Below are positions 3,581-64,000 of a stretch of DNA of 64,000 nt, piece by piece. Position numbers and translations under genes: made by a program. The DNA is taken from the NCBI RefSeq assembly GCF_988242995.1, contig NZ_OZ547043.1; one strand, given 5' to 3'. Under the pieces are notes generated by a model. The model was not told where the DNA came from and did not search any database. It saw only the letters and a program-made list of their open reading frames with translations. How positions within the stretch are numbered: the stretch's first letter is position 1; each line of letters begins with the position of its first letter.

Positions 3581-3777
3581 AAAGTATGATTATTGTGCCT
3601 TAATGCCCGGTTAACCAGGCTTTTAGAAGTCGCTGTTCTGAGCTTAACGTCTGTATTAATAGAAACGCCGCATTCTACACTACAACATTGAGGCGAGGAA
3701 ATGTTCATACCGTATGGATTGTGGTATCTGGAAACGTCCTCGCATTTGTTATGCAAAATGCAACAAAGCCAGTGAAA

Positions 3778-5860: not shown

Positions 5861-5892
5861 GCCTAATACCCTTATCCAGTATCCCGCTATCG

Positions 5893-6468
5893 TCAACGCC
5901 TGATAAGCGGTTGAACTTTGTTATCAATAGCTTCCCTCGCTCGGAAGATACGTGAACGCACCGTACCTACCGGACAATCCATGATAGCGGCTATCTCTTC
6001 ATAGCTCAGGCCATCCAGCTCCCGCAAGGTTATTGCCATGCGTAAATCTTCCGGGAGGGACTCAATAGTTCGGAAAACTATCTGTCTCAGTTCTTCTGAC
6101 AACATTAAGTTCTCAGGGTTCGAAATTTCTTTCAACGCGCCGCCACTTTCGAAGTTTTCAGCTTCAATGGCATCCACATCACTGGAAGGTGGACGACGCC
6201 CCTGAGCAACCAGGTAATTTTTCGCTGTATTTACAGCAATCCGATACAGCCATGTATAAAAAGCGCTATCTCCCCGGAACGAATCCAGCGCACGATAGGC
6301 TTTAATAAAAGCTTCTTGTACCACATCGGGAACATCACCCGACGGCACATAGCGGGAAACCAGACTCGCCACTTTATGCTGATAGCGCACTACCAGTAAG
6401 TTAAAGGCTTTCTGATCTCCCTTCTGGACCCGTTCAACCAGGACCTGGTCCGTTAACTGCTCGCTCAT
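5893..6468 (-). CDS. rpoE: RNA polymerase sigma-E (sigma-24)
   Basis: ORF track gives 202 aa; start trimmed to MSEQLTDQVLVERVQKGD for 191 aa; ECF sigma region 2/4 sequence. Confidence 0.92.
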   Translation of the reverse strand: MSEQLTDQVLVERVQKGDQKAFNLLVVRYQHKVASLVSRYVPSGDVPDVVQEAFIKAYRALDSFRGDSAFYTWLYRIAVNTAKNYLVAQGRRPPSSDVDAIEAENFESGGALKEISNPENLMLSEELRQIVFRTIESLPEDLRMAITLRELDGLSYEEIAAIMDCPVGTVRSRIFRAREAIDNKVQPLIRR

Positions 6469-6540
6469 CCGAGGTAAAGTCTCCCCAAACCAAATTTCCA
6501 CGCGCTATCGAAACGCCACTCCATTAGCTGCAATTTGAGC

Positions 6541-6568
6541 AAGCAAAGGGTTAGAGTGTCTCGTTTTT
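6541..6568 (-). promoter_or_regulatory. Sigma-E-dependent promoter upstream of rpoE
   Basis: Minus strand reads GGAACTT-N16-TCTAA (window 6562-6568 and 6541-6545), matching the sigma-E consensus about 70 nt upstream of the rpoE start. Confidence 0.7.
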
Positions 6569-6866
6569 GTAAAGTTCCGTAACGCATCTGTTTTTGTTTG
6601 TCATGCTGTAGACGGATCATTATCTATCATTATAAGTCTACAGAATCTGAACATCGCATTATCTGTGTAGAAATGCCCATTTAACTGCCTGAAGAGTAAC
6701 CCAACGGCCTTTTTATTTCACCACCTAATCCTCCACCAGCCAGTAACTTCTCTTTTTCTCGCCGCCCTGCGTCAACGTGTTTAGCAACTGTAACAAATAT
6801 TAAAATAGCAGGTGTTTATCCGCACAACATGATGCTATGCTGACCAAACCATGTTTAGTAAATTAA

Positions 6867-9220
<2,354 letters not shown>

Positions 9221-10686: not shown

Positions 10687-10725
10687 TCTCAATGCCGGGT
10701 TTAAGCCCGGCATTATTTTTATCCC
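10687..10725. terminator. Rho-independent terminator between srmB and yfiE (bidirectional)
   Basis: GC hairpin tgccgggtttaagcccggca followed by a T-run. Confidence 0.6.
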
Positions 10726-12344: not shown

Positions 12345-12728
12345 TTACAGGCTTTCAGTAAAGGTACGAGCGATAACGTCGCGCTGCTGTTCCGGAGTCA
12401 GAGAGTTAAAGCGAACTGCATAACCGGATACACGGATGGTCAGCTGCGGATATTTTTCCGGATGCTTAACTGCATCTTCCAGAGTTTCACGACGCAGAAC
12501 GTTTACGTTCAGGTGTTGACCACCTTCAACGCGAACTTCTGGTTTCACTTCTACTGGAACTTCACGGTACTCAATGTCACCCAGTTTGCTTACTGCAACC
12601 ACTTCGTCTTCTGCAAAACCTGCTTTCGCAACGATGCAACGCGCTTCGCCTTTTTCGCTGTCCAGCAGCCAGAAAGAGTTCAGCAGATCGTCGTTAGCGG
12701 CTTTAGTAATCTGGATACCTGTAATCAT
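12345..12728 (-). CDS. grcA: Glycyl-radical autonomous cofactor GrcA (YfiD)
   Basis: ORF track gives 133 aa; start trimmed to [13 protein letters not shown] (127 aa); C-terminal glycyl-radical motif RVSGYAV. Confidence 0.9.
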
Positions 12729-13032: not shown

Positions 13033-13722
13033 ATGGCAAACGAATTAACCTGGCATGACGTGCTGGCTGAAGAGAAGCAACAACCCTATTTTCTTAATAC
13101 CCTACAGACCGTCGCCAGCGAGCGGCAGTCCGGCGTCACTATCTATCCGCCACAAAAGGATGTCTTTAACGCGTTCCGCTTTACAGAGTTGGGTGACGTT
13201 AAAGTGGTGATTCTCGGCCAGGATCCTTATCACGGACCGGGACAGGCGCATGGTCTGGCATTTTCCGTTCGCCCCGGCATTGCGACACCGCCGTCACTGC
13301 TGAATATGTATAAAGAGCTGGAAAATACTATTCCCGGTTTCACCCGCCCTAATCATGGTTATCTTGAAAGCTGGGCGCGTCAGGGCGTTCTGCTACTCAA
13401 TACTGTGTTGACGGTTCGCGCAGGTCAGGCGCATTCCCACGCCAGTCTCGGCTGGGAGACCTTCACCGATAAAGTCATCAGCCTGATTAACCAGCACCGC
13501 GAAGGCGTGGTGTTTTTGTTGTGGGGCTCACATGCGCAAAAGAAAGGGGCGATTATTGATAAGCAACGCCATCACGTACTGAAAGCGCCGCATCCATCAC
13601 CGCTTTCTGCGCATCGTGGGTTCTTTGGCTGCAACCATTTTGTGCTGGCAAATCAGTGGCTGGAACAACGTGGCGAGAAACCGATTGACTGGATGCCAGT
13701 ATTACCGGCAGAGAGTGAGTAA
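13033..13722 (+). CDS. ung: Uracil-DNA glycosylase
   Basis: 229-aa ORF with conserved UDG motifs ([19 protein letters not shown]). Confidence 0.95.
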
Positions 13723-19005: not shown

Positions 19006-20361
19006 ATGTTGTCAAAATTTAAGCGTAATAAACATCAACAACACCTTGCCCAACTACCCAAGATTTCTCAATCAGTTGATGATGTCGATTTCTTTTACGC
19101 TCCCGCCGACTTCCGGGAGACGCTGCTGGAAAAAATAGCCAGCGCGAAGCAGCGCATTTGCATTGTCGCCCTGTATCTCGAACAGGATGACGGTGGCAAA
19201 GGCATTCTGAACGCGTTGTATGAGGCTAAAAGGCAGCGTCCGGAACTGGATGTGCGGGTGCTGGTCGACTGGCATCGTGCACAACGTGGACGCATTGGCG
19301 CTGCGGCATCTAACACTAACGCTGACTGGTACTGCCGCATGGCGCAGGAAAATCCGGGCGTAGATGTTCCGGTTTATGGCGTGCCAATCAATACCCGTGA
19401 AGCCCTTGGTGTTCTGCACTTTAAAGGCTTTATCATCGACGATAGCGTACTTTATAGCGGTGCCAGCCTGAACGATGTTTACCTGCATCAGCACGATAAA
19501 TATCGCTACGACCGTTATCATCTGATCCGTAACCGTAAGATGTCAGACATTATGTTTGAATGGGTTACACAGAATATTATGAATGGCCGCGGCGTTAATC
19601 GTCTGGATGATGTTAATCGGCCAAAAAGCCCGGAAATCAAGAACGATATTCGTCTGTTCCGCCAGGAGCTGCGTGATGCCGCTTATCATTTCCAGGGCGA
19701 TGCCGACAACGATCAGCTTTCCGTAACGCCGCTAGTGGGGCTGGGGAAATCGAGTCTGTTGAACAAGACCATTTTCCATCTTATGCCTTGTGCCGAGCAG
19801 AAACTAACCATCTGTACGCCATACTTCAACCTGCCAGCAATCCTTGTGCGCAATATTATCCAGTTGCTGCGCGAAGGGAAAAAGGTCGAAATTATTGTTG
19901 GTGATAAAACCGCGAACGACTTCTACATTCCGGAAGATGAACCTTTCAAGATAATTGGCGCATTGCCTTATCTCTATGAGATCAATCTGCGTCGTTTCCT
20001 GAGCCGTTTGCAGTATTACGTCAATATTGACCAGCTAGTGGTTCGGTTATGGAAAGATGACGACAACACCTATCACCTGAAAGGGATGTGGGTTGATGAT
20101 AAGTGGATGTTGATCACCGGTAATAACCTGAACCCGCGCGCCTGGCGTCTGGATCTGGAAAACGCCATTTTGATCCACGATCCACAACTGGAGCTTGCGC
20201 CGCAGCGAGAGAAAGAACTGGAGCTGATCCGCGAGCATACCACCATCGTTAAGCACTATCGCGATCTGCAAAGTATTGCCGATTATCCGGTGAAGGTTCG
20301 TAAACTCATCCGCCGTTTGCGCCGTATCCGCATCGACCGATTAATTAGCCGCATCCTGTAA
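19006..20361 (+). CDS. pssA: Phosphatidylserine synthase
   Basis: 451-aa product starting MLSKFKRNKHQQ; two HxK-type PLD-like motifs (HFKGF, HLKGM). Confidence 0.9.
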   Translation: MLSKFKRNKHQQHLAQLPKISQSVDDVDFFYAPADFRETLLEKIASAKQRICIVALYLEQDDGGKGILNALYEAKRQRPELDVRVLVDWHRAQRGRIGAAASNTNADWYCRMAQENPGVDVPVYGVPINTREALGVLHFKGFIIDDSVLYSGASLNDVYLHQHDKYRYDRYHLIRNRKMSDIMFEWVTQNIMNGRGVNRLDDVNRPKSPEIKNDIRLFRQELRDAAYHFQGDADNDQLSVTPLVGLGKSSLLNKTIFHLMPCAEQKLTICTPYFNLPAILVRNIIQLLREGKKVEIIVGDKTANDFYIPEDEPFKIIGALPYLYEINLRRFLSRLQYYVNIDQLVVRLWKDDDNTYHLKGMWVDDKWMLITGNNLNPRAWRLDLENAILIHDPQLELAPQREKELELIREHTTIVKHYRDLQSIADYPVKVRKLIRRLRRIRIDRLISRIL

Positions 20362-22025: not shown

Positions 22026-22295
22026 GCCATTATGTCTCCTGCCGTAATCCGATGCTTTTGTCGGTCGCTGTTGTTTATTTTTTTTGGTAAAGAAAATGTT
22101 ATACATTTGTTGCGTATCATTATGCAACCTTAACCATGAATTTAGTTAGCAGGAAAATGGTTATTGAGGAGCTTAAGGATAAATTTCTGGTAAGGAGGAT
22201 GTATGGAAGTGGGCAATTTGGGGAAACCGTATCCGTTGCTGAATCTGGCGTATGTGGGGGGATAATGCGGATATCTACACTCGCCGCAACTCTTC

Positions 22296-22331
22296 GTAGG
22301 TCGGGTAAGACGCGCCAGCGTCGCATCCGGC
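22296..22331. repeat. REP (repetitive extragenic palindromic) element
   Basis: gtaggtcgggtaagacgcgccagcgtcgcatccggc resembles the E. coli REP consensus (GCCGGATGCGGCG...). Confidence 0.6.
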
Positions 22332-22350
22332 ATTTATTCCGCACCAGCGC

Positions 22351-22557
22351 AAAAAGGCCATCCGTCAGGATGGCCTTCTGCTTAATTTGATGCCTGGCAG
22401 TTTATGGCGGGCGTCCTGCCCGCCACCCTCCGGGCCGTTGCTTCGCAACGTTCAAATCCGCTCCCGGCGGATTTGTCCTGGTTGGGAGAGTGTTCACCGA
22501 CAAACAACAGATAAAACAAAAGGCCCAGTCTTCCGACTGAGCCTTTTGCTTTATTTG
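22351..22557 (-). terminator. rrn operon tandem terminators (T1/T2-like) 3' of the 5S gene
   Basis: Two GC hairpins with T-runs on the minus strand (about 22351-22380 and 22516-22548) and a short 5S-like remnant, matching the rrnB T1-T2 architecture as recalled. Confidence 0.75.
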
Positions 22558-22770: not shown

Positions 22771-25675
<2,905 letters not shown>

Positions 25676-25868: not shown

Positions 25869-25944
25869 TGGCGTCCCCTAGGGGATTCGAACCCCTGTTA
25901 CCGCCGTGAAAGGGCGGTGTCCTGGGCCTCTAGACGAAGGGGAC
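25869..25944 (-). tRNA. gltW: tRNA-Glu (UUC) in the 16S-23S spacer
   Basis: 76 nt; reverse complement is GTCCCCTTCGTCTAGAGGCCCAGGACACCGCCCTTTCACGGCGGTAACAGGGGTTCGAATCCCCTAGGGGACGCCA. Confidence 0.96.
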
Positions 25945-26038
25945 GTGTCAGTCTGCTTCGCAAGACGCCTTGCTTTTCACTTTCTATCAGACAATCTGTG
26001 TGAGCACTTCAAAGAACGCTTCTTTAAGGTAAGGAGGT

Positions 26039-52006: not shown

Positions 52007-52369
52007 GGGGCTGATTCTGGATTCGACGGGATTTGCGAAACCCAAGGTGCATGCCGAGGGGCGGTTGGCCTCGTAAAAAGCCGCAAAAAATAGTCGCAAA
52101 CGACGAAAACTACGCTTTAGCAGCTTAATAACCTGCTTAGAGCCCTCTCTCCCTAGCCTCCGCTCTTAGGACGGGGATCAAGAGAGGTCAAACCCAAAAG
52201 AGATCGCGTGGAAGCCCTGCCTGGGGTTGAAGCGTTAAAACTTAATCAGGCTAGTTTGTTAGTGGCGTGTCCGTCCGCAGCTGGCAAGCGAATGTAAAGA
52301 CTGACTAAGCATGTAGTACCGAGGATGTAGGAATTTCGGACGCGGGTTCAACTCCCGCCAGCTCCACCA
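52007..52369 (+). ncRNA. ssrA: tmRNA (SsrA / 10Sa RNA)
   Basis: 363 nt from GGGGCTGATTCTGGATTCGACGGG to ...CCCGCCAGCTCCACCA; contains the tag reading frame region; tRNA-like 3' end. Confidence 0.96.
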
Positions 52370-52483
52370 CTTGCTCTTCCGGATACGTCCGGAGAAATCC
52401 TGAAAGCCCGCATGGCGCAAGCCCTGTGGGCTTTTTTGTGTCTACCGTTGTCCGAGGATATCCAGCTGAGTCCAGTGATTATT

Positions 52484-52531
52484 GGTATACGTTTAGGTAT
52501 ACGGTAAGATGTATACCTAAATGCGTATACC
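52484..52531. promoter_or_regulatory. Repeat cluster at the int 5' end (GTATAC-containing repeats with an 11-bp inverted repeat); candidate Int arm-type sites or int operator
   Basis: TTTAGGTATAC-N8-GTATACCTAAA perfect inverted repeat (about 52492-52521) abutting the ATG at 52521, plus two more GGTATAC/CGTATACC copies. Confidence 0.45.
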
Positions 52532-53753
52532 AATTCATGAAGGAACGGCCAAAGTGGCAAGAACGACACGTCCCCTGACCAACACTGAAGTTCTGCGCGC
52601 TAAAGCGTTAGAAAAGGATCTAACGTTGCATGATGGCGATGGCCTTTTTCTGCTCGTTAAAACGAACGGTAAGAAATTATGGCGTTTCCGCTACCAAAAG
52701 CCAGTAACAAAACAGCGGACCATGATTAGTTTAGGAACCTTCCCTGCACTATCCTTGGCTGAAATCAGAAATGTGCGAGCTAAGTATCTTTCCTTGTTAG
52801 CCAAGGGGATCGATCCACAAACACACAATGAACAAGTCACACAACAACAACAAATTGCAGTAGAAAGTATTTTTTCAAACGTTGCTAAAAATTGGTTTGC
52901 CATTAAACGCAATAGCGTTACACCTGATTATGCAAAGGATATATGGCGATCCTTAGAGAAGGACATTTTCCCTGCTATCGGAGAGATTCCTGTTCAGGAA
53001 ATAAAAGCACGTATATTAATTGAAGCCCTAGAACCAATTAAGGCCCGCGGTGCACTCGAGACTGTTCGTCGTTTGGTGCAACGTATTAACGAAATTATGA
53101 TCTACGCTGTCAATACCGGATTAATTGAGGCTAATCCTGCGTCAGGTATTGGCATGGCTTTTGATAAACCCAAAAAGCAAAATTTGCCAACGCTGCGGCC
53201 AGAAGAATTACCTAAACTGATGCATTCTCTAGTAATGTCAAACCTGTCTATTCCTACTCGTTGTCTGATCGAATGGCAACTACTGACACTCGTTCGCCCT
53301 TCAGAAGCCTCTGGCGCCCGCTGGGATGAGATCGATTTAGAATCCAAACTTTGGAGAATTCCTGCTGAAAGGATGAAAGCAAAGCGCGAACATATAGTTC
53401 CTTTATCATCTCAAGCTTTAATTATTCTTGAAGTAATGAAACCCATAAGTGCTCATCGTGAACATATATTTCCTAGCAGGAATAACCCTCAAGAACCGAT
53501 GAATAGCCAAACAGCAAATGCAGCATTAAAACGCATAGGGTACGGAGGAAAGTTAGTTGCACATGGACTCCGTTCTATTGCCAGCACTGCATTAAATGAA
53601 GCCGAATTTAATTCTGACATTATTGAATCAGCTCTTGCACATGTTGATAAAAATGAGGTGAGAAGAGCATATAACCGCTCCACTTATCTTGATAAACGTA
53701 AAGAGATGATGGCTTGGTGGGGAAATTTTATATATAAAAATAATTCATTATAA
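52521..53753 (+). CDS. int: Tyrosine recombinase (phage integrase, P4/CP4-57 family)
   Basis: 410-aa ORF with C-terminal catalytic region (HGLRSIAST...LAHVD...RRAYNRSTYLDKR); real start may be the downstream GTG (about 52551, reading VARTTRPLT). Confidence 0.88.
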   Translation: MRIPIHEGTAKVARTTRPLTNTEVLRAKALEKDLTLHDGDGLFLLVKTNGKKLWRFRYQKPVTKQRTMISLGTFPALSLAEIRNVRAKYLSLLAKGIDPQTHNEQVTQQQQIAVESIFSNVAKNWFAIKRNSVTPDYAKDIWRSLEKDIFPAIGEIPVQEIKARILIEALEPIKARGALETVRRLVQRINEIMIYAVNTGLIEANPASGIGMAFDKPKKQNLPTLRPEELPKLMHSLVMSNLSIPTRCLIEWQLLTLVRPSEASGARWDEIDLESKLWRIPAERMKAKREHIVPLSSQALIILEVMKPISAHREHIFPSRNNPQEPMNSQTANAALKRIGYGGKLVAHGLRSIASTALNEAEFNSDIIESALAHVDKNEVRRAYNRSTYLDKRKEMMAWWGNFIYKNNSL

Positions 53754-53764
53754 AAGGTATTACA

Positions 53765-54799
53765 ATGAATATTGATTCTATAAAACTTCATTTACAAAAT
53801 TTTTTCACAAATAATCCAACTGTTCTTATCGGTTCTGGCCTCTCTCTCGGTGAGGGGATTCCAGGTATGAAAACATTGGGAGAACATCTTAATACAACTA
53901 TCCCCAAATTAGTAAGCGGGGATCTTATAAGAGAATGGGGTATCATAAGTTCCAAACTAAATAATGGTATGGGACTTGAAGATGCCATGGCATTTCTTAA
54001 AGATGAAAGTGAACTTATCCCATTAATTATTCAGCACACCGCAGATCTTATTTTAAAGCATGAAAATACTGTAATATGCTCTGTAATCAATGGAGAAAAA
54101 AATCTAGCATTTACATCTTTATTGAATCACTTAACTTTTAATCAAAATGAATTGATAATTATAACTCCAAACTATGATAGACTAATTGAAATAGCATGTG
54201 AAATTGCTGGTCTAGAAATTTCAACAGGATTTATCAATAGTTATCATTGTATAAATAATCCTGAAGTTGAGTTAGATAAATTCAAAATCACCCACTCTAT
54301 CAAAACCACACGAGGTAAATCTACAGTTCAAATTAGAACTAAAAAACACGTTAAAATATTTAAACCTCATGGTAGTCTTGATTGGTTCAAGGCTGACGAT
54401 AAAATTATCAGGACCAGCTTTCAAAATAAACATAAAAGATTAATTATTACACCAGGTACAAGTAAATTCAGAGCTGGATATCAGCAGCCTTTTGATTGGC
54501 ATAGAGAAAAAGCAAACCATTATATCAAAAGAGCAAAATCACTATTAATTATTGGCTATGGGTTTAATGATGAGCAGTTAGAAGTACATTTGAAATCAAA
54601 AATACGTGAAAAAATACCTGTTTTATTAATGACATATGAATTGACATCAAACGCTCAAAAAATATGTGATGATAATCCTTCTATAACATATGTTATTGCA
54701 GAAGGAAACAATTCCATCGTTTGTATCGATGGCATTAAATATAAAATCGAAAAGAATATTTGGTCTTTAAATGAGTTTGTTAAAGAGGTACTTAAATAA
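53765..54799 (+). CDS. SIR2-like NAD+-binding protein (predicted NADase effector); cargo gene 1
   Basis: 344-aa ORF. Gly-rich NAD-binding loop VLIGSGLSLGEG, TPNYD motif (catalytic Asn codon 54170-54172), KPHGS motif (His codon 54367-54369) and second Rossmann motif IIGYGFND. Low GC; stop overlaps next gene's start (TAATG). Confidence 0.8.
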   Translation: MNIDSIKLHLQNFFTNNPTVLIGSGLSLGEGIPGMKTLGEHLNTTIPKLVSGDLIREWGIISSKLNNGMGLEDAMAFLKDESELIPLIIQHTADLILKHENTVICSVINGEKNLAFTSLLNHLTFNQNELIIITPNYDRLIEIACEIAGLEISTGFINSYHCINNPEVELDKFKITHSIKTTRGKSTVQIRTKKHVKIFKPHGSLDWFKADDKIIRTSFQNKHKRLIITPGTSKFRAGYQQPFDWHREKANHYIKRAKSLLIIGYGFNDEQLEVHLKSKIREKIPVLLMTYELTSNAQKICDDNPSITYVIAEGNNSIVCIDGIKYKIEKNIWSLNEFVKEVLK

Positions 54800-56583
54800 T
54801 GGAATATTACGTCATTAACACTGATGAAACATGCTTTATCGGACGAATCGCAAATGTTGATACCGATCGTGCTATTATCATTTCAGAGTCTCCAGAGATC
54901 ATACAAGAACTAACCGTTTTTGACTTGGTTGCTATTGAAGGCAATACCCCCACAGAGTTTCTTGTTGGTATCATTGAAAAAGTAAAACGCTCTATTGGAG
55001 AAATACAAACTATTGATACTGAAGAAAATATTGAAGATGACAGTGAAAAAGATTTCGATAATATCTTCCAAACTTATTCTATCGATCATGATATTCTTCA
55101 AGTAGCTCTTATCGGCACTTTCTGGGAGGTTTACGGGGATAGAAGGAAAATTTTTAAAAGAGGAGCACAATATTTTCCAAAAGTTGAAAAACAAGCATTT
55201 CTTATAAAAAAAGACAGTCTTGAGAAATTAATGTCGGCAGTCGACAATGATACTCCTGATGAGCTAAAACTCATACTAGGCAACTATGGAAATACCAATT
55301 CACGAGCAGTTGCAAATGGGGATAAATTATTTCAGAGACATGCTGCCCTATTGGGGAGTACTGGTTCAGGTAAAAGTTGGACAGTTGCGTCATTACTAGA
55401 ACAAGCCTCAAAATTAAAATACAACAATATTGTACTTTATGATCTTCATGGTGAATACAAAACTTTATCTGATACACATAATAAATCGAACCGCCCGAGC
55501 ATAGCCGATTATTTTAAAATTGCAAGCCCAGGAAATATCGACGATGTAAATAGTATTTATGTACCTCATTGGTTATTAAACAAAGAAGAAATGCTATCAC
55601 TGTTGTTAGATAGAAGCGATAGCAATGCACCTAATCAGGCAGCAAGATTTAGCTACCACGTGAGAGAGCTAAAAAAAGAATACATCACACACAACAGATT
55701 AATACACTTAGAAGATTGTTTGACTGTTGATGCTCCAATACCCTACTCTATCGAGGATCTTATTAGCAGACTGCACGATGATGATCAAGGTATGAAAAAA
55801 GGTACTAATAATAAAGAAATAAAAGGTGATTGGAATGGAAAACTAACAAGATTCATAAGCAGGTTAAGAACAAAAGTAGACGACAAGAGGAACTGTTTTC
55901 TATTCTCAAATAAACCAGAACACAACCAATATGATTGGTTGGAGAAATACGCTTGTAAAATTTTAAAATCAGATAGCACAGATCATGGCATTAAAATAAT
56001 TGATTTTTCTGAAGTTCCTTCAGATATTATGCCTATTGTTATTGGTGTATTGACCAGATTTTTATACAACGTCCAATTTTGGAGATGTGAGACCGAACGA
56101 ACCCCTATAGCATTCGTTTGTGACGAAGCTCATATTTATTTACCCGCTAAGGATACCACTGAGGCTGAAACAAAAATATCCTTATCAATATTCGAGAAAA
56201 TTGCTAAAGAAGGCAGAAAGTACGGAGTATCTTTATTAGTCGTCAGCCAAAGACCTTCTGATGTTAGCAGAACAATACTAAGTCAATGTAATAACATAAT
56301 TTCTCTCAGACTAAGTAATTATAGAGATCAACAGGTAGTTAGTCGGTTAATGCCTGATTCATTGAGTTCATTAACATCCATACTACCAATTCTTGATACT
56401 GGGGAAGCAATAGTTCTTGGCGACTCTGTTCTATTACCAGCTAGAATAAAATTGAATCCACCAACACTCAAGCCCGATAGCGCAACCAGAGCTTTTTGGA
56501 ATGAGTGGGGGGCAATTGAAGCAAAAGAAATCTCTATAGCAAATGCTGTTGAATCACTCAGGAGACAATCTCGTAATCGCTAA
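54799..56583 (+). CDS. HerA/FtsK-type ATPase; cargo gene 2
   Basis: 594-aa ORF. Walker A GSTGSGKS (Lys codon 55372-55374), Walker B FVCDEAH (56122-56133), and KEGRKYGVSLLVVSQRP arginine-finger region typical of HerA. Translationally coupled to the SIR2-like gene. Confidence 0.8.
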   Translation: MEYYVINTDETCFIGRIANVDTDRAIIISESPEIIQELTVFDLVAIEGNTPTEFLVGIIEKVKRSIGEIQTIDTEENIEDDSEKDFDNIFQTYSIDHDILQVALIGTFWEVYGDRRKIFKRGAQYFPKVEKQAFLIKKDSLEKLMSAVDNDTPDELKLILGNYGNTNSRAVANGDKLFQRHAALLGSTGSGKSWTVASLLEQASKLKYNNIVLYDLHGEYKTLSDTHNKSNRPSIADYFKIASPGNIDDVNSIYVPHWLLNKEEMLSLLLDRSDSNAPNQAARFSYHVRELKKEYITHNRLIHLEDCLTVDAPIPYSIEDLISRLHDDDQGMKKGTNNKEIKGDWNGKLTRFISRLRTKVDDKRNCFLFSNKPEHNQYDWLEKYACKILKSDSTDHGIKIIDFSEVPSDIMPIVIGVLTRFLYNVQFWRCETERTPIAFVCDEAHIYLPAKDTTEAETKISLSIFEKIAKEGRKYGVSLLVVSQRPSDVSRTILSQCNNIISLRLSNYRDQQVVSRLMPDSLSSLTSILPILDTGEAIVLGDSVLLPARIKLNPPTLKPDSATRAFWNEWGAIEAKEISIANAVESLRRQSRNR

Positions 56584-56608
56584 TAAAAATATTATCTAGC
56601 AACGCGCA

Positions 56609-56627
56609 GTGCTTTCCCCGCCTCGCC
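56609..56627 (-). other. P2/P4-type cos site (19-nt cohesive end sequence)
   Basis: Window reads GTGCTTTCCCCGCCTCGCC, the exact reverse complement of the P2/P4 cohesive end GGCGAGGCGGGGAAAGCAC as recalled; flanked by GC-rich dyads. Confidence 0.8.
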
Positions 56628-56791
56628 CGCCCGCTTTGCGGGGCGGTTTCAGTGCAGTTGCACTGACACGCTCAGGCCGCGCCGGGAATGGCGCGGTCTG
56701 CAGAAAATGAGGCAGGAAAACGCATGCAAAGCCATGCACCTTATCGATGCATGGCTTTTTTCAGTAAAAACGGGCGGATTTTCGGGGAATT

Positions 56792-57364
56792 TTACACAGA
56801 CTGATGTGATGCCAGTTGCGCACTTTTACGCGAAAAAATCATGTTCTGCGCAGGAGTGAATTTTTCACGGCTGTCATCCACCGAAGCCGCGTCAGGCCTG
56901 AATCCGATGGTCGTTAAAATGTCGCTATCCTGTGCGGAATAATTAATTTTTTCACCCTTCGCAAGCCAGGACTGGAGGGCTTCACGCAGGGCATCTGTGG
57001 CACGCTGTATGGCACAGTTTCGGGCAATGGCCGTCAGCTCACTGTAGCCCATCAGCTCCGGTGCCAGTGCCGCCGCCAGTGCTGTGCCGTGCTGCTGCAT
57101 AAAATCATTCAGCCGGTCGCGGATGCTGATGTGCTGAACGGCTTCATGCGAACGAATATAACGACCGGCGGCCTGATTCACCTGCCATTTTCTGACTTCG
57201 ATAATATTGCGTAATTCGTCCAGGCGACTGACGTTTCTGCCTTCTCCTGACAGAAGCCGCAGGTATTCCTGTTCGGCCGCTGCCAGCTCATTTTTGCGTT
57301 GCAGCCATGCTGCTTTGTTATTCTGACAGGTGTCAAAGGCCTGCTGTAAGGCTGTGCTTTCCAT
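56792..57364 (-). CDS. psu: P4 Psu-like protein (polarity suppression / capsid decoration)
   Basis: 190-aa ORF, the same length as P4 Psu, in the conserved psu-delta-sid order next to cos. Confidence 0.75.
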   Translation of the reverse strand: MESTALQQAFDTCQNNKAAWLQRKNELAAAEQEYLRLLSGEGRNVSRLDELRNIIEVRKWQVNQAAGRYIRSHEAVQHISIRDRLNDFMQQHGTALAAALAPELMGYSELTAIARNCAIQRATDALREALQSWLAKGEKINYSAQDSDILTTIGFRPDAASVDDSREKFTPAQNMIFSRKSAQLASHQSV

Positions 57365-57437
57365 CGTTATCTCTTTCTCATCATGCTGAAGAATAAAAAT
57401 ACGGTGTGCGGCGACGGCCGGTGTTAACCGGCAGCCC

Positions 57438-57938
57438 TCATTCCAGACGCAGCGAATATGATTGTGTTTTTAACCGTACTGGCGGCAGTTCCTGTTTTTC
57501 ATGCAGGCGTTCTGCCAGTTCGTCCGGCGTGACCGGGCGGACAATGAAACGGTTGATGGTCTGAAGCGTTTTAAACACCAGACCACAGCCCGGATCCGTG
57601 CACACATAAAAACGCTCGGTGACTTCCTGAGACAGACGCCGCGATGTTCTTGACAGTGCAAGGCCTTTACATCTCCGACAACAATATCCGGTAACAAGCA
57701 TTCTTTTCGGCCGTTTCATACTGCCGGAGGCTGACGTCAGTGAATCGCGGTATCTCTGTTTGCCTGAAATGTATTCCATTCCTGAATCTTTACAGTCAGA
57801 GAAAAAGCTTTCACTCGCTTCAAATGTCGCAGAGCAATAAATATTCCGGCACTGTGCAATCATTATCTTGGTGCCATCGTCCATGAAATGTGCGCGACGG
57901 GTGTGAGCAACATGTCCACACGACGGGCAGTAAATCAT
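57438..57938 (-). CDS. delta: P4 Delta-like late-gene activator (tandem Ogr-type zinc fingers)
   Basis: 166-aa ORF with two C-x2-C...C-x4-C zinc-finger units (MIYCPSCGHVAH...CRNIYC and YCCRRCKG...CTDPGC). Confidence 0.85.
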   Translation of the reverse strand: MIYCPSCGHVAHTRRAHFMDDGTKIMIAQCRNIYCSATFEASESFFSDCKDSGMEYISGKQRYRDSLTSASGSMKRPKRMLVTGYCCRRCKGLALSRTSRRLSQEVTERFYVCTDPGCGLVFKTLQTINRFIVRPVTPDELAERLHEKQELPPVRLKTQSYSLRLE

Positions 57939-58669
57939 GACAGCAGCCCTCTGGCCTTAAGCTCTGCTCCCTGCTGGTCTATTTTGTCCTGCCACACCTT
58001 GCGCTGTGCCGGTGTGCCTGCCACCTCATAATCCATGTGCGGGAGTGTTGCCGCTGACAGTCCGGCCAGCCGGAGAACCGGCTCGCCGGTGAGGCTGATT
58101 TGCATCTGTTTTATTTTCTGTTCCAGCGATGATTTCACCTGCTGCATGACAGCCTTTTCCGGCGCGACGTAGCCCTGATGGCCGGTGGTGTTGGCGAGCG
58201 GATTTTCCTGTACCAGGATGCTCAGATGCATTGCCCGGACAAGCGCCTCACAGGTTTCATTCAGGGCGTGTTCCAGCTCATGCTCTGCATACAGACTCAG
58301 CAGGTGATGATGTGCCTTCCGGTAGGCGGTGGCCGTGCTGTCACACGCCCCTTTCAGGCGTTCACATTCAAAATTCAGCACCACGGCCAGATTGTCATAT
58401 TCCTGTACCAGCTCCCGGCGTGCCACGCGCTCAATGTGGCGCTGTTTCAGCTCATCGCTCAGGACACCACCGGCTGCACGAAAGGCCGTGCGCCAGTCGT
58501 CAGCGTCGTTTCCGTCGGCCTGCGTCAGCGCATTTTTTTCCTGCTCTGCCCGTTCAATGGCCGTGATGGTCTCATCCATCAGGCGGGCGTTCTCAAGATG
58601 AGCGGCTCTGGCCTTTTCCAGTTGTGCCAGCGCGGGTTGCAGATATTCAGGGATGGTGTTGTCAGACAT
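57935..58669 (-). CDS. sid: P4 Sid-like external scaffold (capsid size determination) protein
   Basis: ORF track gives 266 aa; start trimmed to MSDNTIPEYLQPALAQLEK (244 aa, the P4 Sid length) with RBS; coiled-coil-rich. Confidence 0.75.
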   Translation of the reverse strand: MSDNTIPEYLQPALAQLEKARAAHLENARLMDETITAIERAEQEKNALTQADGNDADDWRTAFRAAGGVLSDELKQRHIERVARRELVQEYDNLAVVLNFECERLKGACDSTATAYRKAHHHLLSLYAEHELEHALNETCEALVRAMHLSILVQENPLANTTGHQGYVAPEKAVMQQVKSSLEQKIKQMQISLTGEPVLRLAGLSAATLPHMDYEVAGTPAQRKVWQDKIDQQGAELKARGLLS

Positions 58670-58703
58670 TTTCCGGCTCCTCGTCACTTCAGGTTGAGAA
58701 AAT

Positions 58704-58759
58704 TGTGACGTACACCGGACAACAACACGACGCATTGCAGATGTGCCAGCCCTGACACA
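58704..58759. promoter_or_regulatory. Two TGT-N12-ACA dyads; candidate Delta/Ogr activator sites for the divergent late promoters (Psid / PLL)
   Basis: TGTgacgtacaccggACA (58704-58721) and TGTgccagccctgacACA (58742-58759) match the P2/P4 late-promoter activator element TGT-N12-ACA. Confidence 0.55.
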
Positions 58760-58838
58760 GGAGACTCATCCTCAGACCGGCAAGCCAGGAAAAGGTCGCA
58801 GGAAAAACCGGCTTACTGTTTGTTTTTTTATATTTTAC

Positions 58839-58942
58839 TGTTCACCTCTGTTCACCTTAAGAAAAAAGATAAGTAATACAGTAAGTTAAAGGATGAACAA
58901 TCGCAGTAATGACTGTTCACCGTCTGTTCACCACTGTTCACC
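58839..58942. repeat. Candidate P4-type replication origin (ori) iteron cluster
   Basis: Five direct copies of TGTTCACC (58839, 58849, 58914, 58925, 58935) plus a degenerate inverted copy; about 4.8 kb from the crr repeats, as in P4. Confidence 0.7.
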
Positions 58943-59221
58943 CGCTCATGGACTTTTTGTGCTGTTTACTACTGTTTGTTTTTATTAATTCGCCGGGAAT
59001 GAATAAGAAGAAACGATTTGTATTTCACTATAAAAATTACGAATTGCTTTAAGTGGCTTTAAATGACTTTAAGTGGAGATGAACAAAAAATACACAAGCA
59101 TTGTAAGGCTGCCGGAACAAATCCCCCCTGTTGCGTCTGCCGAAAATATTCACAAAATAAAGCGCTACCCGAAGCCGGACGGACTTATCCGGTGCTGTAT
59201 GGACATTAACGAGGTAGCCCG

Positions 59222-59488
59222 ATGCAATCTGTTTTTTCTTCCCCGTCTCCCGCCCCAGTGACGCCACTGATGCCGCTGCCGGACATCACGCAGGAGCGTT
59301 TTTTACGTCTGCCGGAAGTGATGCACCTGTGCGGCCTGTCACGCTCGACCATCTATGAACTTATCCGTAAGGGGGAATTTCCGCCGCAGGTGAGTCTTGG
59401 CGGTAAAAATGTGGCCTGGCTGCACTCTGAAGTCACCGCATGGATGGCCGGGCGCATTGCCGGACGCAAACGGGGGTACGACGCATGA
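59222..59488 (+). CDS. vis: AlpA/Vis-family helix-turn-helix regulator
   Basis: 88-aa ORF with AlpA-type HTH ([27 protein letters not shown]), the length of P4 Vis. Confidence 0.75.
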
Positions 59489-60084
59489 TGATGCCCGCTC
59501 TGCAAAAAGTCCCTTTTTCTGGCTTGCCTTTTTCCGGCATTTGCGGATATAGTTTTTCCGCTGCCGCAAAATCGGCAGCCGGGCGTGGAAACCCGAGTAT
59601 GTTATCGGCGACATATGACGCGCCATGCGTCTTTTTTTGTGTCGCAATCAACGCCACAGAGCGCCAGATTATGGTGTGGTGTGTGGTCAGTCGAGCAAAT
59701 GGCACTCCGTGCATTCTGCCCGCGTCCGCTCATTATACCGCAGAGTCAATGGTAGCTCAGGCGGGGCAGCCTCCGCGCTGGCCGGTTTCCGATAACGCCG
59801 GTATTTCCACCCCCGTCTGGGCTATCGCCATCGAGCGTGGAAACTCCGGCGATAGCGTCATTTACGCTGTTATCGGAGGTTGCCTTATGGCTACGACCCT
59901 TATCCCCTCACACCCTGAATTTGTCTTTGTGTTTGCGGCTGTCCGTCGCGCAGACCGTCATCCCCGTATCTGTATGCTTCGCACCGTCGCCGGTGATGAA
60001 CGCAGCGCCCGCCGTTCCCTTGTCCGTGACTATGTGCTCTCCCTTGCTGCCCGTCTGCCGGTGGTGGAGGTGTCCCGTGCGTAA
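59485..60084 (+). CDS. Hypothetical protein, P4 orf199-like (coding status uncertain)
   Basis: 214-aa ORF trimmed to an internal Met to give 199 aa; Ala/Pro-rich and GC-rich, so it could instead overlie the RNA-based immunity locus. Confidence 0.35.
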
Positions 60085-60364
60085 TAAAAAAGCCCCTCAG
60101 ACCGTCTCAGCACGTCATGACGCCCGTGAACACCTCAGCATTGAGGCTTACCATAAGCTCAACCGCGCCAGCGCCGTATCCCAGTTTGTTGGGGGTGATT
60201 TGATTCACCGTGAACTCTCCGGCCTGCATCAGCTCTACATTCCGCATATTTTCAGCTACCTGAATGAAGATATTGATTTTGTGCTGAATGAGCTGAAAGC
60301 CAAAGGCCTGTGCCGCGATTTTCTCGCCCAGCAGAAAGACCGGGGAGACAGGACGCATGTTTGA
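60077..60364 (+). CDS. Hypothetical protein, P4 epsilon-like (possible helper-prophage derepressor)
   Basis: About 95 codons from a putative GTG start within ORF 59837-60364 ([25 protein letters not shown]...); size and position match P4 epsilon. Assignment is by analogy only. Confidence 0.4.
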
Positions 60365-60812
60365 TTTTCCCCAGCCCGGTGAGATTTACCGTTCTGCCGG
60401 TTTTCCCGATGTGGCCGTGGTCGGCATTCTGGAAGACGGTATTCCGTGGGAAATGCCGTACCGCTGCCCGGACATTGTCTGGAACCCGTACCGCCGTAAA
60501 TTCAGTATCCTTGTGCGTATCCTCGCTGACGGGCGCACCACAGACATCCCGCTGGGGCGTTTTCTGCGGGAATTTACCTGTGACCGTCCTGACCTGTTTA
60601 AACGCAGCCCCGTAAACCGGCATGCGGTACTGAAAGAAATGGCCGGAGACCCGGAATTACAGAAATGGCGGGAGAAATATCTGGATATTTACCCGCAGGA
60701 CCCTGTTCCGGTCAGCCGGGCGGCACCGGTGGCGCGGGAATGGCGGGAAATTCCCCGCACGGAGCCTGACCCGGAAACCACCCCGGATAACAGTTACCGC
60801 AATTATCTGTAA
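60357..60812 (+). CDS. Hypothetical protein, P4 orf151-like
   Basis: 151-aa ORF whose start overlaps the previous ORF's stop; position upstream of alpha as in P4. Confidence 0.6.
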   Translation: MFDFPQPGEIYRSAGFPDVAVVGILEDGIPWEMPYRCPDIVWNPYRRKFSILVRILADGRTTDIPLGRFLREFTCDRPDLFKRSPVNRHAVLKEMAGDPELQKWREKYLDIYPQDPVPVSRAAPVAREWREIPRTEPDPETTPDNSYRNYL

Positions 60813-60947
60813 TTAAAAAACGACACCCGAAAAATTAAATGTGCGTATTCGCGCAGGGATACGCACGTCTTCAGGAGACGCAGATATGCCTTATCAGTTA
60901 ATGCAACCGGCACGGAATGCAGTCATCTGTCACAGGGAGGAAAACAA

Positions 60948-61268
60948 ATGAAAACACCCTTACCGCCCGTCTTACGCGCTGCCCTTTACCGTCGCGCTGT
61001 CGCCTGTGCCTGGCTGACCGTGTGCGAACGTCAGCACCGCTACCCGCATCTCACCCTTGAGTCACTGGAGGCGGCCATCGCCGCTGAGCTGGAAGGCTTT
61101 TATCTGCGCCAGCACGGTGAGGAAAAAGGGCGTCAGATAGCCTGTGCCCTGCTGGAAGATTTAATGGAATCCGGCCCCCTGAAGGCCGCGCCGTCGCTGT
61201 CCTTTCTCGGGCTGGTTGTGATGGATGAACTCTGTGCCCGTCACATAAAAGCGCCGGTACTGCACTGA
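60948..61268 (+). CDS. Hypothetical protein, P4 orf106-like
   Basis: 106-aa ORF directly upstream of the alpha gene. Confidence 0.55.
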
Positions 61269-61282
61269 AGGAGAACAACACC

Positions 61283-63616
61283 ATGAAAATGAACGTAACC
61301 GCCACCGTCAGCCATGCGCTCGGCCACTGGCCGCGTATTCTCCCGGCGCTGGGGATTCAGGTGCTGAAGAACCATCATCAGCCCTGTCCGGTCTGTGGCG
61401 GGAGTGACCGCTTCCGTTTTGATGACAGGGAGGGGCGCGGCACCTGGTACTGCAATCAGTGTGGTGCCGGTGACGGCCTGAAACTGGTTGAAAAGGTGTT
61501 TGGTGTCTCCCCGTCCGACGCGGCCGCAAAGGTGGCTGCCGTGACCGGCAGTCTGCCCCCGGCTGACCCGGCAGTGACGGCTGCCGCCGTTGCTGAAACA
61601 GACGCTGCCCGGAAGAACGCCGCCGCACTGGTACAAACCCTGATGGCAAAAACCCGTCCCGGAACCGGTAACGCCTACCTGACCCGCAAGGGCTTTCCCG
61701 GCCGGGAATGCCGGATGCTGACCGGCACACACAGAGCCGGTGGCGTGAGCTGGCGCGCCGGTGACCTTGTGGTGCCACTGTATGACGACAGCGGCGAACT
61801 GGTTAACCTTCAGTTAATCAGTGCTGACGGCCGTAAGCGCACCCTGAAAGGCGGACAGGTCAGGGGCACCTGTCACACCCTTGAAGGACAGAATCAGGCC
61901 GGAAAACGTCTGTGGATAGCGGAGGGATACGCGACCGCACTTACCGTGCATCACCTGACCGGTGAAACGGTGATGGTGGCGCTTTCTTCCGTGAATCTCC
62001 TTTCTCTGGCCAGCCTTGCCCGGCAGAAGCATCCGGCCTGTCAGATTGTCCTTGCTGCTGACCGTGACCTCAGCGGTGACGGCCAGAAAAAAGCCGCCGC
62101 AGCCGCAGATGCGTGTGAAGGTGTTGTTGCCCTGCCGCCGGTCTTCGGTGACTGGAATGATGCCTTCACGCAGTACGGCGGGGAAGCCACCCGTAAGGCC
62201 ATTTATGATGCCATCCGGCCACCGGCTGAAAGCCCGTTCGACACCATGAGCGAAGCGGAGTTTTCCGCCATGAGTACCAGCGAAAAGGCCATGCGTATCT
62301 ATGAGCATTACGGCGAGGCGCTCGCGGTCGATGCCAACGGCCAGCTTCTGTCCCGCTATGAAAATGGTGTCTGGAAGGTGCTGCCGCCACAGGACTTTGC
62401 CCGGGATGTGGCCGGGCTGTTTCAGCGTCTGCGAGCGCCGTTCTCCTCCGGGAAGGTGGCCTCCGTGGTGGACACCCTGAAGCTGATTATTCCGCAGCAG
62501 GAAGCCCCCTCCCGCCGCCTGATTGGCTTTCGTAACGGCGTGCTCGACACGCAGAACGGCACGTTCCACCCGCACAGTCCGTCACACTGGATGCGCACCC
62601 TGTGCGATGTGGATTTCACCCCGCCGGTGGACGGTGAAACGCTGGAAACCCACGCCCCCGCCTTCTGGCGCTGGCTTGACCGTGCCGCCGGTGGCCGTGC
62701 GGAAAAACGCGACGTGATTCTGGCTGCACTGTTTATGGTGCTGGCAAACCGCTACGACTGGCAGCTCTTTCTGGAGGTGACCGGTCCCGGCGGCAGCGGC
62801 AAAAGTATCATGGCCGAAATCGCCACCCTGCTGGCCGGGGAGGATAACGCCACGTCGGCCACCATCGAGACGCTGGAATCCCCGCGTGAACGTGCCGCGT
62901 TAACTGGCTTCTCACTGATACGCCTGCCGGATCAGGAAAAATGGAGCGGCGACGGTGCCGGACTCAAGGCCATCACCGGCGGCGATGCGGTGTCCGTTGA
63001 CCCGAAATACCGGGATGCGTACTCCACGCACATCCCGGCGGTGATTCTGGCCGTGAACAATAACCCGATGCGCTTCACCGACCGCAGCGGCGGCGTGTCA
63101 CGCCGGCGGGTGATTATTCACTTCCCGGAACAGATAGCCCCGCAGGAGCGCGACCCGCAGCTTAAGGACAAAATCACCCGCGAGCTGGCGGTCATCGTGC
63201 GTCACCTGATGCAGAAGTTCAGCGACCCGATGCTCGCCCGGTCACTGCTTCAGTCCCAGCAGAACTCAGACGAGGCACTGAACATCAAACGGGATGCCGA
63301 CCCGACGTTTGATTTTATCGGCTATCTGGAAACCCTGCCGCAGACCAGCGGCATGTATATGGGGAACGCCAGTATCATCCCGCGTAATTACCGTAAATAC
63401 CTCTATCACGCCTATCTGGCCTACATGGAGGCAAACGGCTACCGGAATGTACTCAGTCTGAAAATGTTCGGACTGGGGCTGCCGGTGATGCTGAAAGAAT
63501 ACGGGCTGAATTACGAGAAGCGCCATACCAAACAGGGGATACAGACCAACCTGACGCTGAAAGAAGAAAGCTACGGCGACTGGCTGCCAAAATGTGACGA
63601 CCCTGCAACAGCCTGA
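61283..63616 (+). CDS. alpha: P4 alpha-type replication protein (zinc-finger primase - TOPRIM - helicase - ori-binding)
   Basis: 777-aa ORF (P4 alpha length). N-terminal zinc finger CPVCGGSDRFRF...WYCNQCG, TOPRIM-like acidic patch (AADRD), helicase Walker A (TGPGGSGKS). Confidence 0.88.
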   Translation: MKMNVTATVSHALGHWPRILPALGIQVLKNHHQPCPVCGGSDRFRFDDREGRGTWYCNQCGAGDGLKLVEKVFGVSPSDAAAKVAAVTGSLPPADPAVTAAAVAETDAARKNAAALVQTLMAKTRPGTGNAYLTRKGFPGRECRMLTGTHRAGGVSWRAGDLVVPLYDDSGELVNLQLISADGRKRTLKGGQVRGTCHTLEGQNQAGKRLWIAEGYATALTVHHLTGETVMVALSSVNLLSLASLARQKHPACQIVLAADRDLSGDGQKKAAAAADACEGVVALPPVFGDWNDAFTQYGGEATRKAIYDAIRPPAESPFDTMSEAEFSAMSTSEKAMRIYEHYGEALAVDANGQLLSRYENGVWKVLPPQDFARDVAGLFQRLRAPFSSGKVASVVDTLKLIIPQQEAPSRRLIGFRNGVLDTQNGTFHPHSPSHWMRTLCDVDFTPPVDGETLETHAPAFWRWLDRAAGGRAEKRDVILAALFMVLANRYDWQLFLEVTGPGGSGKSIMAEIATLLAGEDNATSATIETLESPRERAALTGFSLIRLPDQEKWSGDGAGLKAITGGDAVSVDPKYRDAYSTHIPAVILAVNNNPMRFTDRSGGVSRRRVIIHFPEQIAPQERDPQLKDKITRELAVIVRHLMQKFSDPMLARSLLQSQQNSDEALNIKRDADPTFDFIGYLETLPQTSGMYMGNASIIPRNYRKYLYHAYLAYMEANGYRNVLSLKMFGLGLPVMLKEYGLNYEKRHTKQGIQTNLTLKEESYGDWLPKCDDPATA

Positions 63617-63649
63617 CCCACCTGACCGGCATCTGCCGGTCTTTTTTTA

Positions 63650-63975
63650 TCCCTGAATCCCCCGAAGGTGAACAATCCAGTGTTCACCCTTCACCGTATA
63701 TTCACCCGTTATCACACTGAAATTAAAAGAGAAAAACGAAAGGTGAACAGTGTGAACAATCAAATCAAAAAAAACTTTTTTTCTTCCTGTGTGATTTTCA
63801 GCACGGGAAATTAATCCCCTGCACAAGTCACACCGGCAGAATGCCGGAGGTGAAGAATCGAATGTTCACCCTTCACCCATTATTCACCACCTATCACTCT
63901 GAAATAAAAGGAGAAAACAGAAAGGTGAACAGTGTGAACAGTTCTTTCGAAAAAAAATTTTTTTCCTGTACGATA
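63650..63975. repeat. crr-like cis replication region: two direct repeats of about 130 bp, period about 185 bp, each carrying TGTTCACC/GGTGAACA iterons
   Basis: Repeat 1 (about 63660-63790) and repeat 2 (about 63845-63970) align nearly base for base (ggtgaacaatccagtgttcaccc... versus ggtgaagaatcgaatgttcaccc...); located just 3' of alpha. Confidence 0.75.
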
Positions 63976-64000
63976 TAGCATCAATCCAAGTAAAAATGCG

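Follow-up and report, generated by a model that had tools for sequence, protein, structure and literature searches.

Organization and Limits of the Element

The window analyzed here (the whole stretch of DNA, 64,000 nt in length) includes the E. coli tmRNA gene ssrA (52007..52369, + strand; ARAGORN; Rfam RF00023, 295.8 bits), and an element of 11,756 bp is inserted there, a size within 1.2% of that of P4 (11,624 bp). Directly after ssrA, it carries in prophage order an integrase gene, cargo genes, cos, psu-delta-sid, ori iterons, vis, small ORFs, a gene encoding an alpha primase-helicase and crr, so that every feature listed in the original prediction is present at its predicted place. P4-like satellites are defined in SatelliteFinder by seven core components (PMC10085698). 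All seven are found here, at full length and in prophage order, which makes the element a “Type A” satellite under this definition.

The left limit is set by the attL core, i.e., the last 15 nt of ssrA (52355-52369, CCGCCAGCTCCACCA). Just after the regenerated 3′ end of ssrA, the element supplies a terminator-like hairpin with a T-run (52403..52440, + strand; read from the sequence) that is kept in the sister satellites L002, L004, L005 and L006, and the homology with K-12 stops at position 52440. It is followed by putative arm-type integrase sites (52481..52534) consisting of a direct repeat (ATTGGTATACGTTTAGGTATACG) and an inverted copy, with a spacing that resembles that of the attP arm repeats of P4. 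The direct repeat is also found on the attR side (positions 16215-16237 of L002 and 20264-20286 of L012).

At the other extremity, the homology with P4 ends at position 63963. The attR-side arm region, which is not related to P4, starts at this point (63964..64000), and the element extends 125 nt beyond the window. The right end was therefore read from the public contig L012, which matches the window over 20,236 nt with 0 mismatches. In this contig, the direct repeat of the ssrA 3′ end that had been predicted beyond crr is present as a perfect 15-nt attR core (CCGCCAGCTCCACCA; L012 20347-20361, equivalent to window positions 64111-64125). It sits 111-125 nt past position 64000 and is the only listed feature located outside the window. 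The host flank that follows attR in L012 is the one seen at empty sites, and the predicted empty site is present uninterrupted, in one piece, in 709 of the 5426 complete E. coli genomes.

The first gene encodes a tyrosine integrase of 399 aa (52554..53753, + strand; PHROG phrog_1, 1.7e-67). The longest ORF starts from an ATG at 52521 and encodes 410 aa; homologues are annotated from the GTG at 52554, the start retained here. The identical gene of L012 is recorded with the Pfam domains Arm-DNA-bind_3 and Phage_integrase. This integrase is 59.9% identical to IntA of CP4-57 from K-12 and 36.3% identical to P4 Int, and integrases of this type adjoin ssrA in 409 of 5426 complete genomes.

A P4 Backbone from cos to crr

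Positions 56628-63963 align in a single piece of 7.3 kb with positions 11624-4291 of P4 (X51522), with 98.0% DNA identity, which is far above chance. Psu, Delta, Sid, Vis, epsilon, ORF151, ORF106 and alpha all have the length of their P4 counterparts and are 98-100% identical to them. The original prediction was to be abandoned if Psu, Delta, Sid and alpha proved dissimilar from the P4 proteins; their identities of 98-100% uphold it, and the sizes that it gave (190, 166, 244 and 777 aa, respectively) are all exact. Its label “P4-like” holds for the satellite architecture but understates the relationship: the backbone is that of P4 itself, at 98% DNA identity, with an exchanged int/att module.

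The backbone begins with the cos packaging site (56603..56674). Its 19-nt cohesive end (56609-56627, GTGCTTTCCCCGCCTCGCC) corresponds exactly to P4 positions 1-19 in reverse complement and is joined to P4 sequence running downward from position 11624. The P2-type cos site expected in a P4-like satellite is thus present in the form of the exact P4 cohesive end, and the cos region is 86-92% identical to those of P2-family phages. Then, psu, delta and sid are contiguous on the minus strand (56792-58669) and each is 98% identical to P4: psu (56792..57364; 190 aa, 187/190 identical to P4 Psu; phrog_6366, 2e-100), delta, encoding the transactivator of helper late genes (57438..57938; 166 aa, 163/166 identical to P4 Delta; phrog_603), and sid, encoding the capsid size-determining scaffold (57935..58669; 244 aa, 239/244 identical to P4 Sid; phrog_6165, 5.5e-115). 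For sid, the mechanically called ORF has 266 aa and the start used in P4 gives 244 aa.

The ori iteron cluster (58839..58942) contains five exact copies of TGTTCACC, at 58839, 58849, 58914, 58925 and 58935. It coincides with the type-1 repeats of P4 (9310-9413), whose “ori” annotation maps to approximately 58443-59166. All the genes located downstream are on the + strand. The first one, vis or ORF88 (59222..59488; 86/88 identical to P4 ORF88; PHROG excisionase families), encodes an excisionase-regulator of the AlpA family. The P4 immunity RNA region, including both the targets and the CI RNA (59547..59832, + strand), is delineated by Rfam matches above the gathering score, namely c4-a1b1 (59547-59599), isrK (59560-59637) and C4 (59745-59832). 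It lies within an “Icd-like” or Phage_ASH ORF of 199 aa (59485..60084) that covers the old P4 “cI 137 aa” frame (121/138 identical); this gene call and its Pfam assignment were taken from the identical contig L012 (15721-16320). Next come the genes encoding epsilon, which derepresses the helper prophage (60077..60364; 95 aa, 94/95 identical to P4; Pfam “Derepression” in L012), ORF151 (60357..60812; 150/151), ORF106 (60948..61268; 106/106) and the alpha primase-helicase (61283..63616; 777 aa, 771/777 identical to P4 alpha; phrog_2249, 3.8e-241). The alpA-type vis, epsilon and alpha genes therefore follow each other in the order required of a P4-like satellite. Finally, crr (63662..63963, corresponding to P4 4291-4590) consists of two 120-bp direct repeats (63662-63781 and 63844-63963) that are about 82% alike and carry ori-type iterons.

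The location in ssrA could also evoke a generic integrative island of the CP4-57 kind, bearing a superficial resemblance to P4. The element and CP4-57 indeed share attB, including the 15-nt core that overlaps the 3′ end of ssrA, and are flanked on the right, after attR, by the same host sequence (ATCATGATTGG...); the integrase is 60% identical to IntA. However, besides ssrA and a weak similarity between the int genes (67% DNA identity), nothing aligns with CP4-57, whereas 7.3 kb encompassing psu, delta, sid, cos, ori, alpha and crr are 98% identical to P4. This alignment already refutes the CP4-57-kind reading, to which we give practically no credence. With CP4-57, for which a comparison had been proposed, the element shares attB and 60% of the integrase sequence; the two are otherwise unrelated.

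A Variable Cargo Slot Occupied by a SIR2/HerA Operon

A slot of variable content (53744..56602) separates the 3′ end of int from cos. Its exact edges are given by the comparison with three sister satellites, which lose homology with the element at 53687-53743 and regain it at 56589-56603. The backbones of L004, L005 and L006 are 98% identical to the window, and their slots have different contents: (i) another SIR2/HerA pair in L004, (ii) a DUF2326 “ABC-three component” set in L005, and (iii) a gene encoding a NACHT protein in L006. The two proteins of the L004 pair are 25% and 24% identical (aa) to those of the element.

In the window, this interval of 2.85 kb, from the end of the int stop codon at 53753 to the beginning of cos at 56603, is filled by two genes, both on the + strand. 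The first one encodes a SIR2-family protein of 344 aa (53765..54799) that matches the PADLOC SIR2 model PDLC04082 over its full length (1e-124) and Pfam SIR2_2 (9.6e-11). The second one encodes a HerA-type ATPase of 594 aa (54799..56583) that matches the PADLOC HerA model PDLC04105 (9e-210) and Pfam DUF87 (1.2e-29). The two genes share 1 nt (54799), at the SIR2 stop codon, and the pair has the organization of a SIR2-HerA system, with adjacent SIR2-domain and HerA/DUF87 genes in one operon. The GC content of the cargo is 0.30-0.37 (approximately 0.30-0.36 for the SIR2 gene) compared to about 0.5-0.64 for the backbone. This cargo allele is rare in complete RefSeq genomes of E. coli (1 out of 5426); the exact cargo proteins are encoded by 140-276 public contigs.

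SIR2-HerA complexes have been solved, for example 8j4u and 8yhx. The SIR2-HerA system, or “Nezha”, is an anti-phage system reportedly described by Gao et al. in 2020. According to the literature, it acts by NAD+ depletion. The SIR2 protein of the element has distant matches with solved SIR2 chains (E values of 1e-10 and 1e-5). The best solved matches of HerA are 9c1m (1.4e-67), 8xau, 8ziq and 8wiv; chain M of 8j4u, the structure whose SIR2-domain chain also matches the SIR2 protein of the element, ranks lower (2e-33).

An anti-phage activity of this cargo is probable from its family membership. Alternatively, the pair could be something other than a host-protecting abortive infection system, acting against the helper or rival satellites or having a role in DNA processing. 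The short SIR2 protein (344 aa), remote from characterized SIR2-HerA proteins, the low identity (~25%) with the other pair found in the same slot, and the difference between the best solved relatives of HerA and the structure matched by SIR2 would be compatible with such a role. However, the full-length matches to the PADLOC SIR2 and HerA models of the SIR2-HerA system, a gene order and an overlap identical to those of the defense system, and a slot documented as a home of antiviral systems make this very unlikely. It is also rather doubtful, although conceivable, that this short SIR2 and its HerA form a functionally distinct and uncharacterized branch of SIR2-HerA systems, whose trigger or effector chemistry might differ and which might spare the P2-family helper. 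This reading is based on the identity of about 25% with the other SIR2/HerA pair of the P4 slot and on the remote similarity to solved complexes.

The location of this cargo, adjoining cos between int and psu, is that of the psu-int hotspot described by Rousset et al. 2022 (PMC9122126), who named SIR2+HerA among its systems and listed WP_021516369 in psu-int loci in their Table S1A. The HerA protein of the element is identical to WP_021516369 over 594/594 residues. The original statement that satellites of this family carry variable antiviral cargo at this place agrees both with the differences between sister slots and with this previous description. The arrangement, down to the HerA protein itself, had been published before, and the observation, though correct, is ordinary. 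Since the int-psu defense hotspot was known, with SIR2+HerA as a listed occupant, and the HerA protein was already tabulated there, the element carries little weight as a discovery. Its value is rather that of a clean and fully delimited example, in which the P4 backbone is retained at 98% identity and the int/att module and the cargo have been exchanged.

Putative Mobility and Proposed Life Cycle

Overall, we estimate at about 90% the probability that the whole element is a P4-type phage satellite, apparently intact, inserted at the ssrA 3′ end by an IntA-like integrase and carrying a SIR2/HerA operon in its int-cos/psu hotspot. Its intact parts suggest that it could be mobilized by a P2-type helper and packaged in a helper-dependent manner. 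Furthermore, the comparison with strain EC21GDE043 shows a divergence of 0.42% for the left half of the element versus 3.4% for the adjacent chromosome, the switch occurring at the ssrA end. This contrast is counted in favor of a probable recent transfer.

Decay is observed in related elements: L010 and L013 encode a truncated Delta of 81 aa, the sid gene of the sister satellite L006 carries a frameshift, and L002, L005 and L006 have shortened attR cores. No helper prophage was found in the 64-kb window, the first 52 kb of which are syntenic with the lepB-ssrA region of K-12. It should also be emphasized that Vis is that of P4 (98%), whereas the integrase shares only 36% identity with P4 Int; that the two proteins cooperate at the ssrA att site is thus an assumption. 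The decay seen in sisters, a Vis/Int pairing that is heterologous relative to P4 and the absence of a helper from the window could be explained if the element were a defective and immobilized remnant, having lost excision, replication and packaging and persisting only as a chromosomal defense island. However, in the present copy, all core genes are full length and 98-100% identical to those of functional P4, cos is exact and both att cores are perfect. Moreover, the presence of this integrase type next to ssrA in hundreds of genomes (see above) and a left half much more alike between strains than their chromosomes argue against immobilization, and we consider a remnant improbable.

If the element is an intact satellite, as we favor, its cycle would be as follows. 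According to established P4 biology, the CI RNA would keep the prophage silent. In the presence of a P2-family helper, epsilon would derepress the helper and Delta would switch on its late genes; Sid would direct the formation of small capsids, which Psu would decorate. Alpha would drive replication from ori and crr, excision between the two 15-nt cores would be carried out by Int and Vis, and the helper terminase would package the element from cos. In the lysogen, as suggested by its family, the SIR2/HerA complex would deplete NAD+ upon infection and abort phage growth, and the satellite would thereby earn its keep, its host being protected from other phages. Because its att sites are perfect and its empty site is verified, the element would be a convenient natural construct for studying the putative SIR2/HerA defense of a satellite and how compatible this defense is with a P2-type helper.

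Comparison with Known Systems

The closest known element is P4 (X51522/NC_001609), which has the same gene order and protein lengths from psu to crr and the same DNA, at 98% identity, from cos to crr. They differ by their int/attP module, the attP core of P4 being located at 4078-4097 whereas the element targets the ssrA 3′ end, and by their cargo: the interval between cos and int, which contains gop, beta and cII in P4, is occupied by SIR2/HerA in the element, as had been predicted. CP4-57, a cryptic prophage of K-12, has the integration site in common with the element and encodes an AlpA-family excisionase that is 36% identical to Vis. However, it is an island of 22 kb without psu, delta, sid, cos, alpha or crr; beyond int and alpA, its gene content is absent from the element, and only int aligns.

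Compared to the psu-int hotspots reported by Rousset et al. 2022, the element shows no difference in kind. Its cargo has the gene order of the SIR2-HerA (“Nezha”) system, SIR2 and then the HerA ATPase, but its SIR2 protein has 344 aa compared to 415-428 aa in the characterized ones, and its HerA protein is nearer to other solved HerA chains than to the HerA of 8j4u.

Backbone of the satellite

The element integrated at the 3′ end of the tmRNA gene ssrA is a complete "Type A" P4-like satellite under the definition based on seven components, namely Int, Psu, Delta, Sid, an AlpA-type regulator, Ash/epsilon and alpha (PMC10085698). The original prediction of a satellite anatomy at this locus is borne out by the P4 parts that were found: positions 56628-63963 correspond to positions 11624 to 4291 of P4 (X51522) in a single alignment with 98.0% DNA identity. 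Psu (187/190 residues identical to P4), Delta (163/166), Sid (239/244), ORF88 (Vis; 86/88), epsilon (94/95), ORF151 (150/151), ORF106 (106/106) and alpha (771/777) all keep their P4 lengths. The cos junction is intact, with a 19-nt cohesive end at 56609-56627, beyond which the left end of P4 survives for only about 25 nt. Five exact TGTTCACC iterons are found at the position of the P4 ori, and both 120-bp repeats of crr are present. The P4 immunity RNA of the C4 family (59745-59832) and its targets c4-a1b1 and isrK were matched above the Rfam gathering thresholds. Compared to P4 as well as to EC21GDE043 (the complete RefSeq genome closest to the window), the element diverges most in the region of ori, vis and the CI RNA (58819-60318), which governs immunity (91.8-96.6% identity versus >99% in the remaining left half); this pattern suggests recombination or diversifying change of the immunity module.

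Integrase and left junction

The left junction follows the 3′ end of ssrA at 52369 (ARAGORN and Rfam). A terminator-like hairpin supplied by the element lies directly 3′ of this end; next come the repeat pair ATTGGTATACGTTTAGGTATACG and the tyrosine integrase gene (ORF 52521-53753, PHROG). The longest integrase ORF begins at an ATG (52521) within the putative arm-site repeats; annotated RefSeq homologues use instead the GTG at 52554 (399 aa), with GAAGGAAC just upstream, and the 410-aa form is used in some metagenome gene calls. The integrase is only 36% identical to P4 Int, compared to 60% for IntA of CP4-57, the K-12 island located at ssrA. Close homologues of HerA and of the integrase (HJH02267.1 and HJH02265.1, in the 90%-identity clusters of the window's proteins) are filed under a MAG labelled as the Gram-positive Aerococcus urinaeequi; they are most likely due to contamination by E. 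coli DNA or to misbinning.

Right junction and size of the element

The search for attR within the window was negative because the window ends 111 nt before this site. EC21GDE043 was first used to locate it: in this genome and in K-12, the element or island terminates in a pseudo-ssrA 3′ end, after which ATCATGATTGG is read. A synthetic "empty site" query, in which ssrA was joined directly to the right-hand host flank, gave a single unbroken 99.9% match in 709 of the 5426 complete E. coli genomes. The exact SIR2 protein led to another contig (GCA_026780745.1) that matches positions 43765-64000 of the window at 20,236/20,236 positions and extends about 800 nt past its end. There, attR reads TTCAAACTCCGCCAGCTCCACCA then ATCATGATTGAACGG, and the 15 nt of its core, CCGCCAGCTCCACCA (window-equivalent 64111-64125), repeat the ssrA end perfectly. 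The direct repeat expected beyond crr is thus present in a contig identical to the window. The positions of attL and attR, the latter taken from this contig, give a length of 11,756 bp for the element, compared to 11,624 bp for P4. A putative arm-type repeat is found on both sides of the element with a P4-like spacing.

Relatives often have a damaged copy of the ssrA 3′ end at attR. K-12 (23473-23486 of the comparison contig) and three other contigs (L009, L010 and L011, about 20340-20360) lack one T; the copy is 5 nt short in EC21GDE043 (16293-16308) and in the sister satellite L006 (about 12660-12674), and the sister satellite L005 carries another variant (about 13645-13661). E. coli WB61 (L008, 1550-1575) has an empty ssrA site, ...CCCGCCAGCCAATCATGATTGG, with a tmRNA annotated as 359 nt; this site is exactly the left part of attL joined to the right part of a 5-nt-short attR. 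It represents either a scar left by natural excision or a deletion that existed beforehand, and the acceptor stem of the tmRNA is probably inactivated by it. The short core of EC21GDE043 and the WB61 "scar" had suggested that excision leaves a truncated tmRNA gene. This was dropped for the element of the window because the 100% identical contig has a perfect attR, and the observation of short attR copies holds for relatives only.

Prevalence, transfer and neighbours

The attL junction with this type of integrase was found in 409 of the 5426 complete E. coli genomes, and the crr-attR-flank junction in 234. Divergence from EC21GDE043 is 3.4% in the chromosome on the left side of ssrA and 0.42% in the element from attL to sid, the shift occurring at the ssrA end; it is 2.8% in the right half of the element. 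This divergence pattern indicates recent horizontal transfer and mosaic recombination.

Over its first 52 kb, the window shows synteny to the lepB...smpB-ssrA region of K-12 (97-98% identity); the rrnG operon and its tRNA-Glu (25869-25944) are part of this stretch. Three small breaks of synteny were detected (10691-10715, 22265-22541 and 25944-25965). About 150 bp are extra in K-12 near srmB/yfiE, the interval from kgtP/yfiS to rrfG is about 275 bp in the window versus about 65 bp in K-12, and the 16S-tRNA spacer is shorter than in K-12.

No helper prophage was found within the window. In a near-identical strain (L009, GCA_044201435.1), the same satellite (0 differences over 11,676 nt) comes after a P2-family prophage (1-8605) with GpA, a CI repressor, an integrase and a 309-aa ORF; the matches of this prophage include Felsduovirus and Klebsiella P2-like phages. 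Since the prophage precedes the satellite and terminates at a 45-nt fragment of the ssrA 3′ end, the tmRNA gene of this strain has a helper-type phage and the satellite in tandem. In other tandem arrays at ssrA, the satellite comes before a CP4-57-like island (left end; L010, about 20020-20130) or before another integrase gene (L016, 20349-21035). Some sisters are decaying: L010 and L013 (13616-13861) encode a Delta truncated to 81 aa, and sid is frameshifted in L006 (6483-7216).

Predicted life cycle

By analogy with the established biology of P4, immunity would be ensured by the CI RNA, epsilon would derepress the helper, Delta would activate late genes, and Sid and Psu would hijack the capsid. 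Alpha would replicate the element from ori and crr, Int with Vis would excise it, and a P2-family terminase would package it from cos. This scheme has weak points: the window contains no helper prophage, and for excision a P4-type Vis would have to cooperate with a non-P4 integrase.

Cargo and comparison with known systems

The SIR2 gene (53765-54799; full-length match to the PADLOC SIR2 model, 1e-124; Pfam SIR2_2) and the HerA gene (54799-56583; full-length match to the PADLOC HerA model, 9e-210; Pfam DUF87) overlap, and their GC content (0.30-0.37) is lower than that of the rest of the element (about 0.5-0.64). HerA is identical to that of EC21GDE043 (594/594, WP_021516369). The exact cargo DNA was found by megablast in only one of the 5426 complete E. 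coli genomes; an exact-protein look-up found the exact cargo proteins in E. coli, Shigella and E. marmotae, with 140-276 public contigs carrying them.

Three other P4-type satellites integrated in ssrA have backbones about 98% identical to that of the window. Their homology stops at 53687-53743, in the last int codons, and resumes at 56589-56603, just before cos. Their slots carry a different SIR2/HerA pair (L004; 25% and 24% protein identity), a DUF2326 "ABC-three component" set (L005) or a NACHT protein (L006).

As anticipated, comparison with the P4 annotation places SIR2/HerA in the interval where P4 carries gop-beta-cII. This arrangement is already known: Rousset et al. 2022 described exactly this hotspot of P4-like satellites, between psu and int and adjacent to cos, with SIR2 + HerA among the known systems that it holds, and list WP_021516369 in their Table S1A as "SIR2_2 + DUF87". 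From the SIR2-HerA family (Gao 2020, as cited in Rousset et al. 2022), the cargo would deplete NAD+ and thereby cause abortive infection, although the SIR2 protein of the window is only remotely similar to those of the solved SIR2-HerA complexes.
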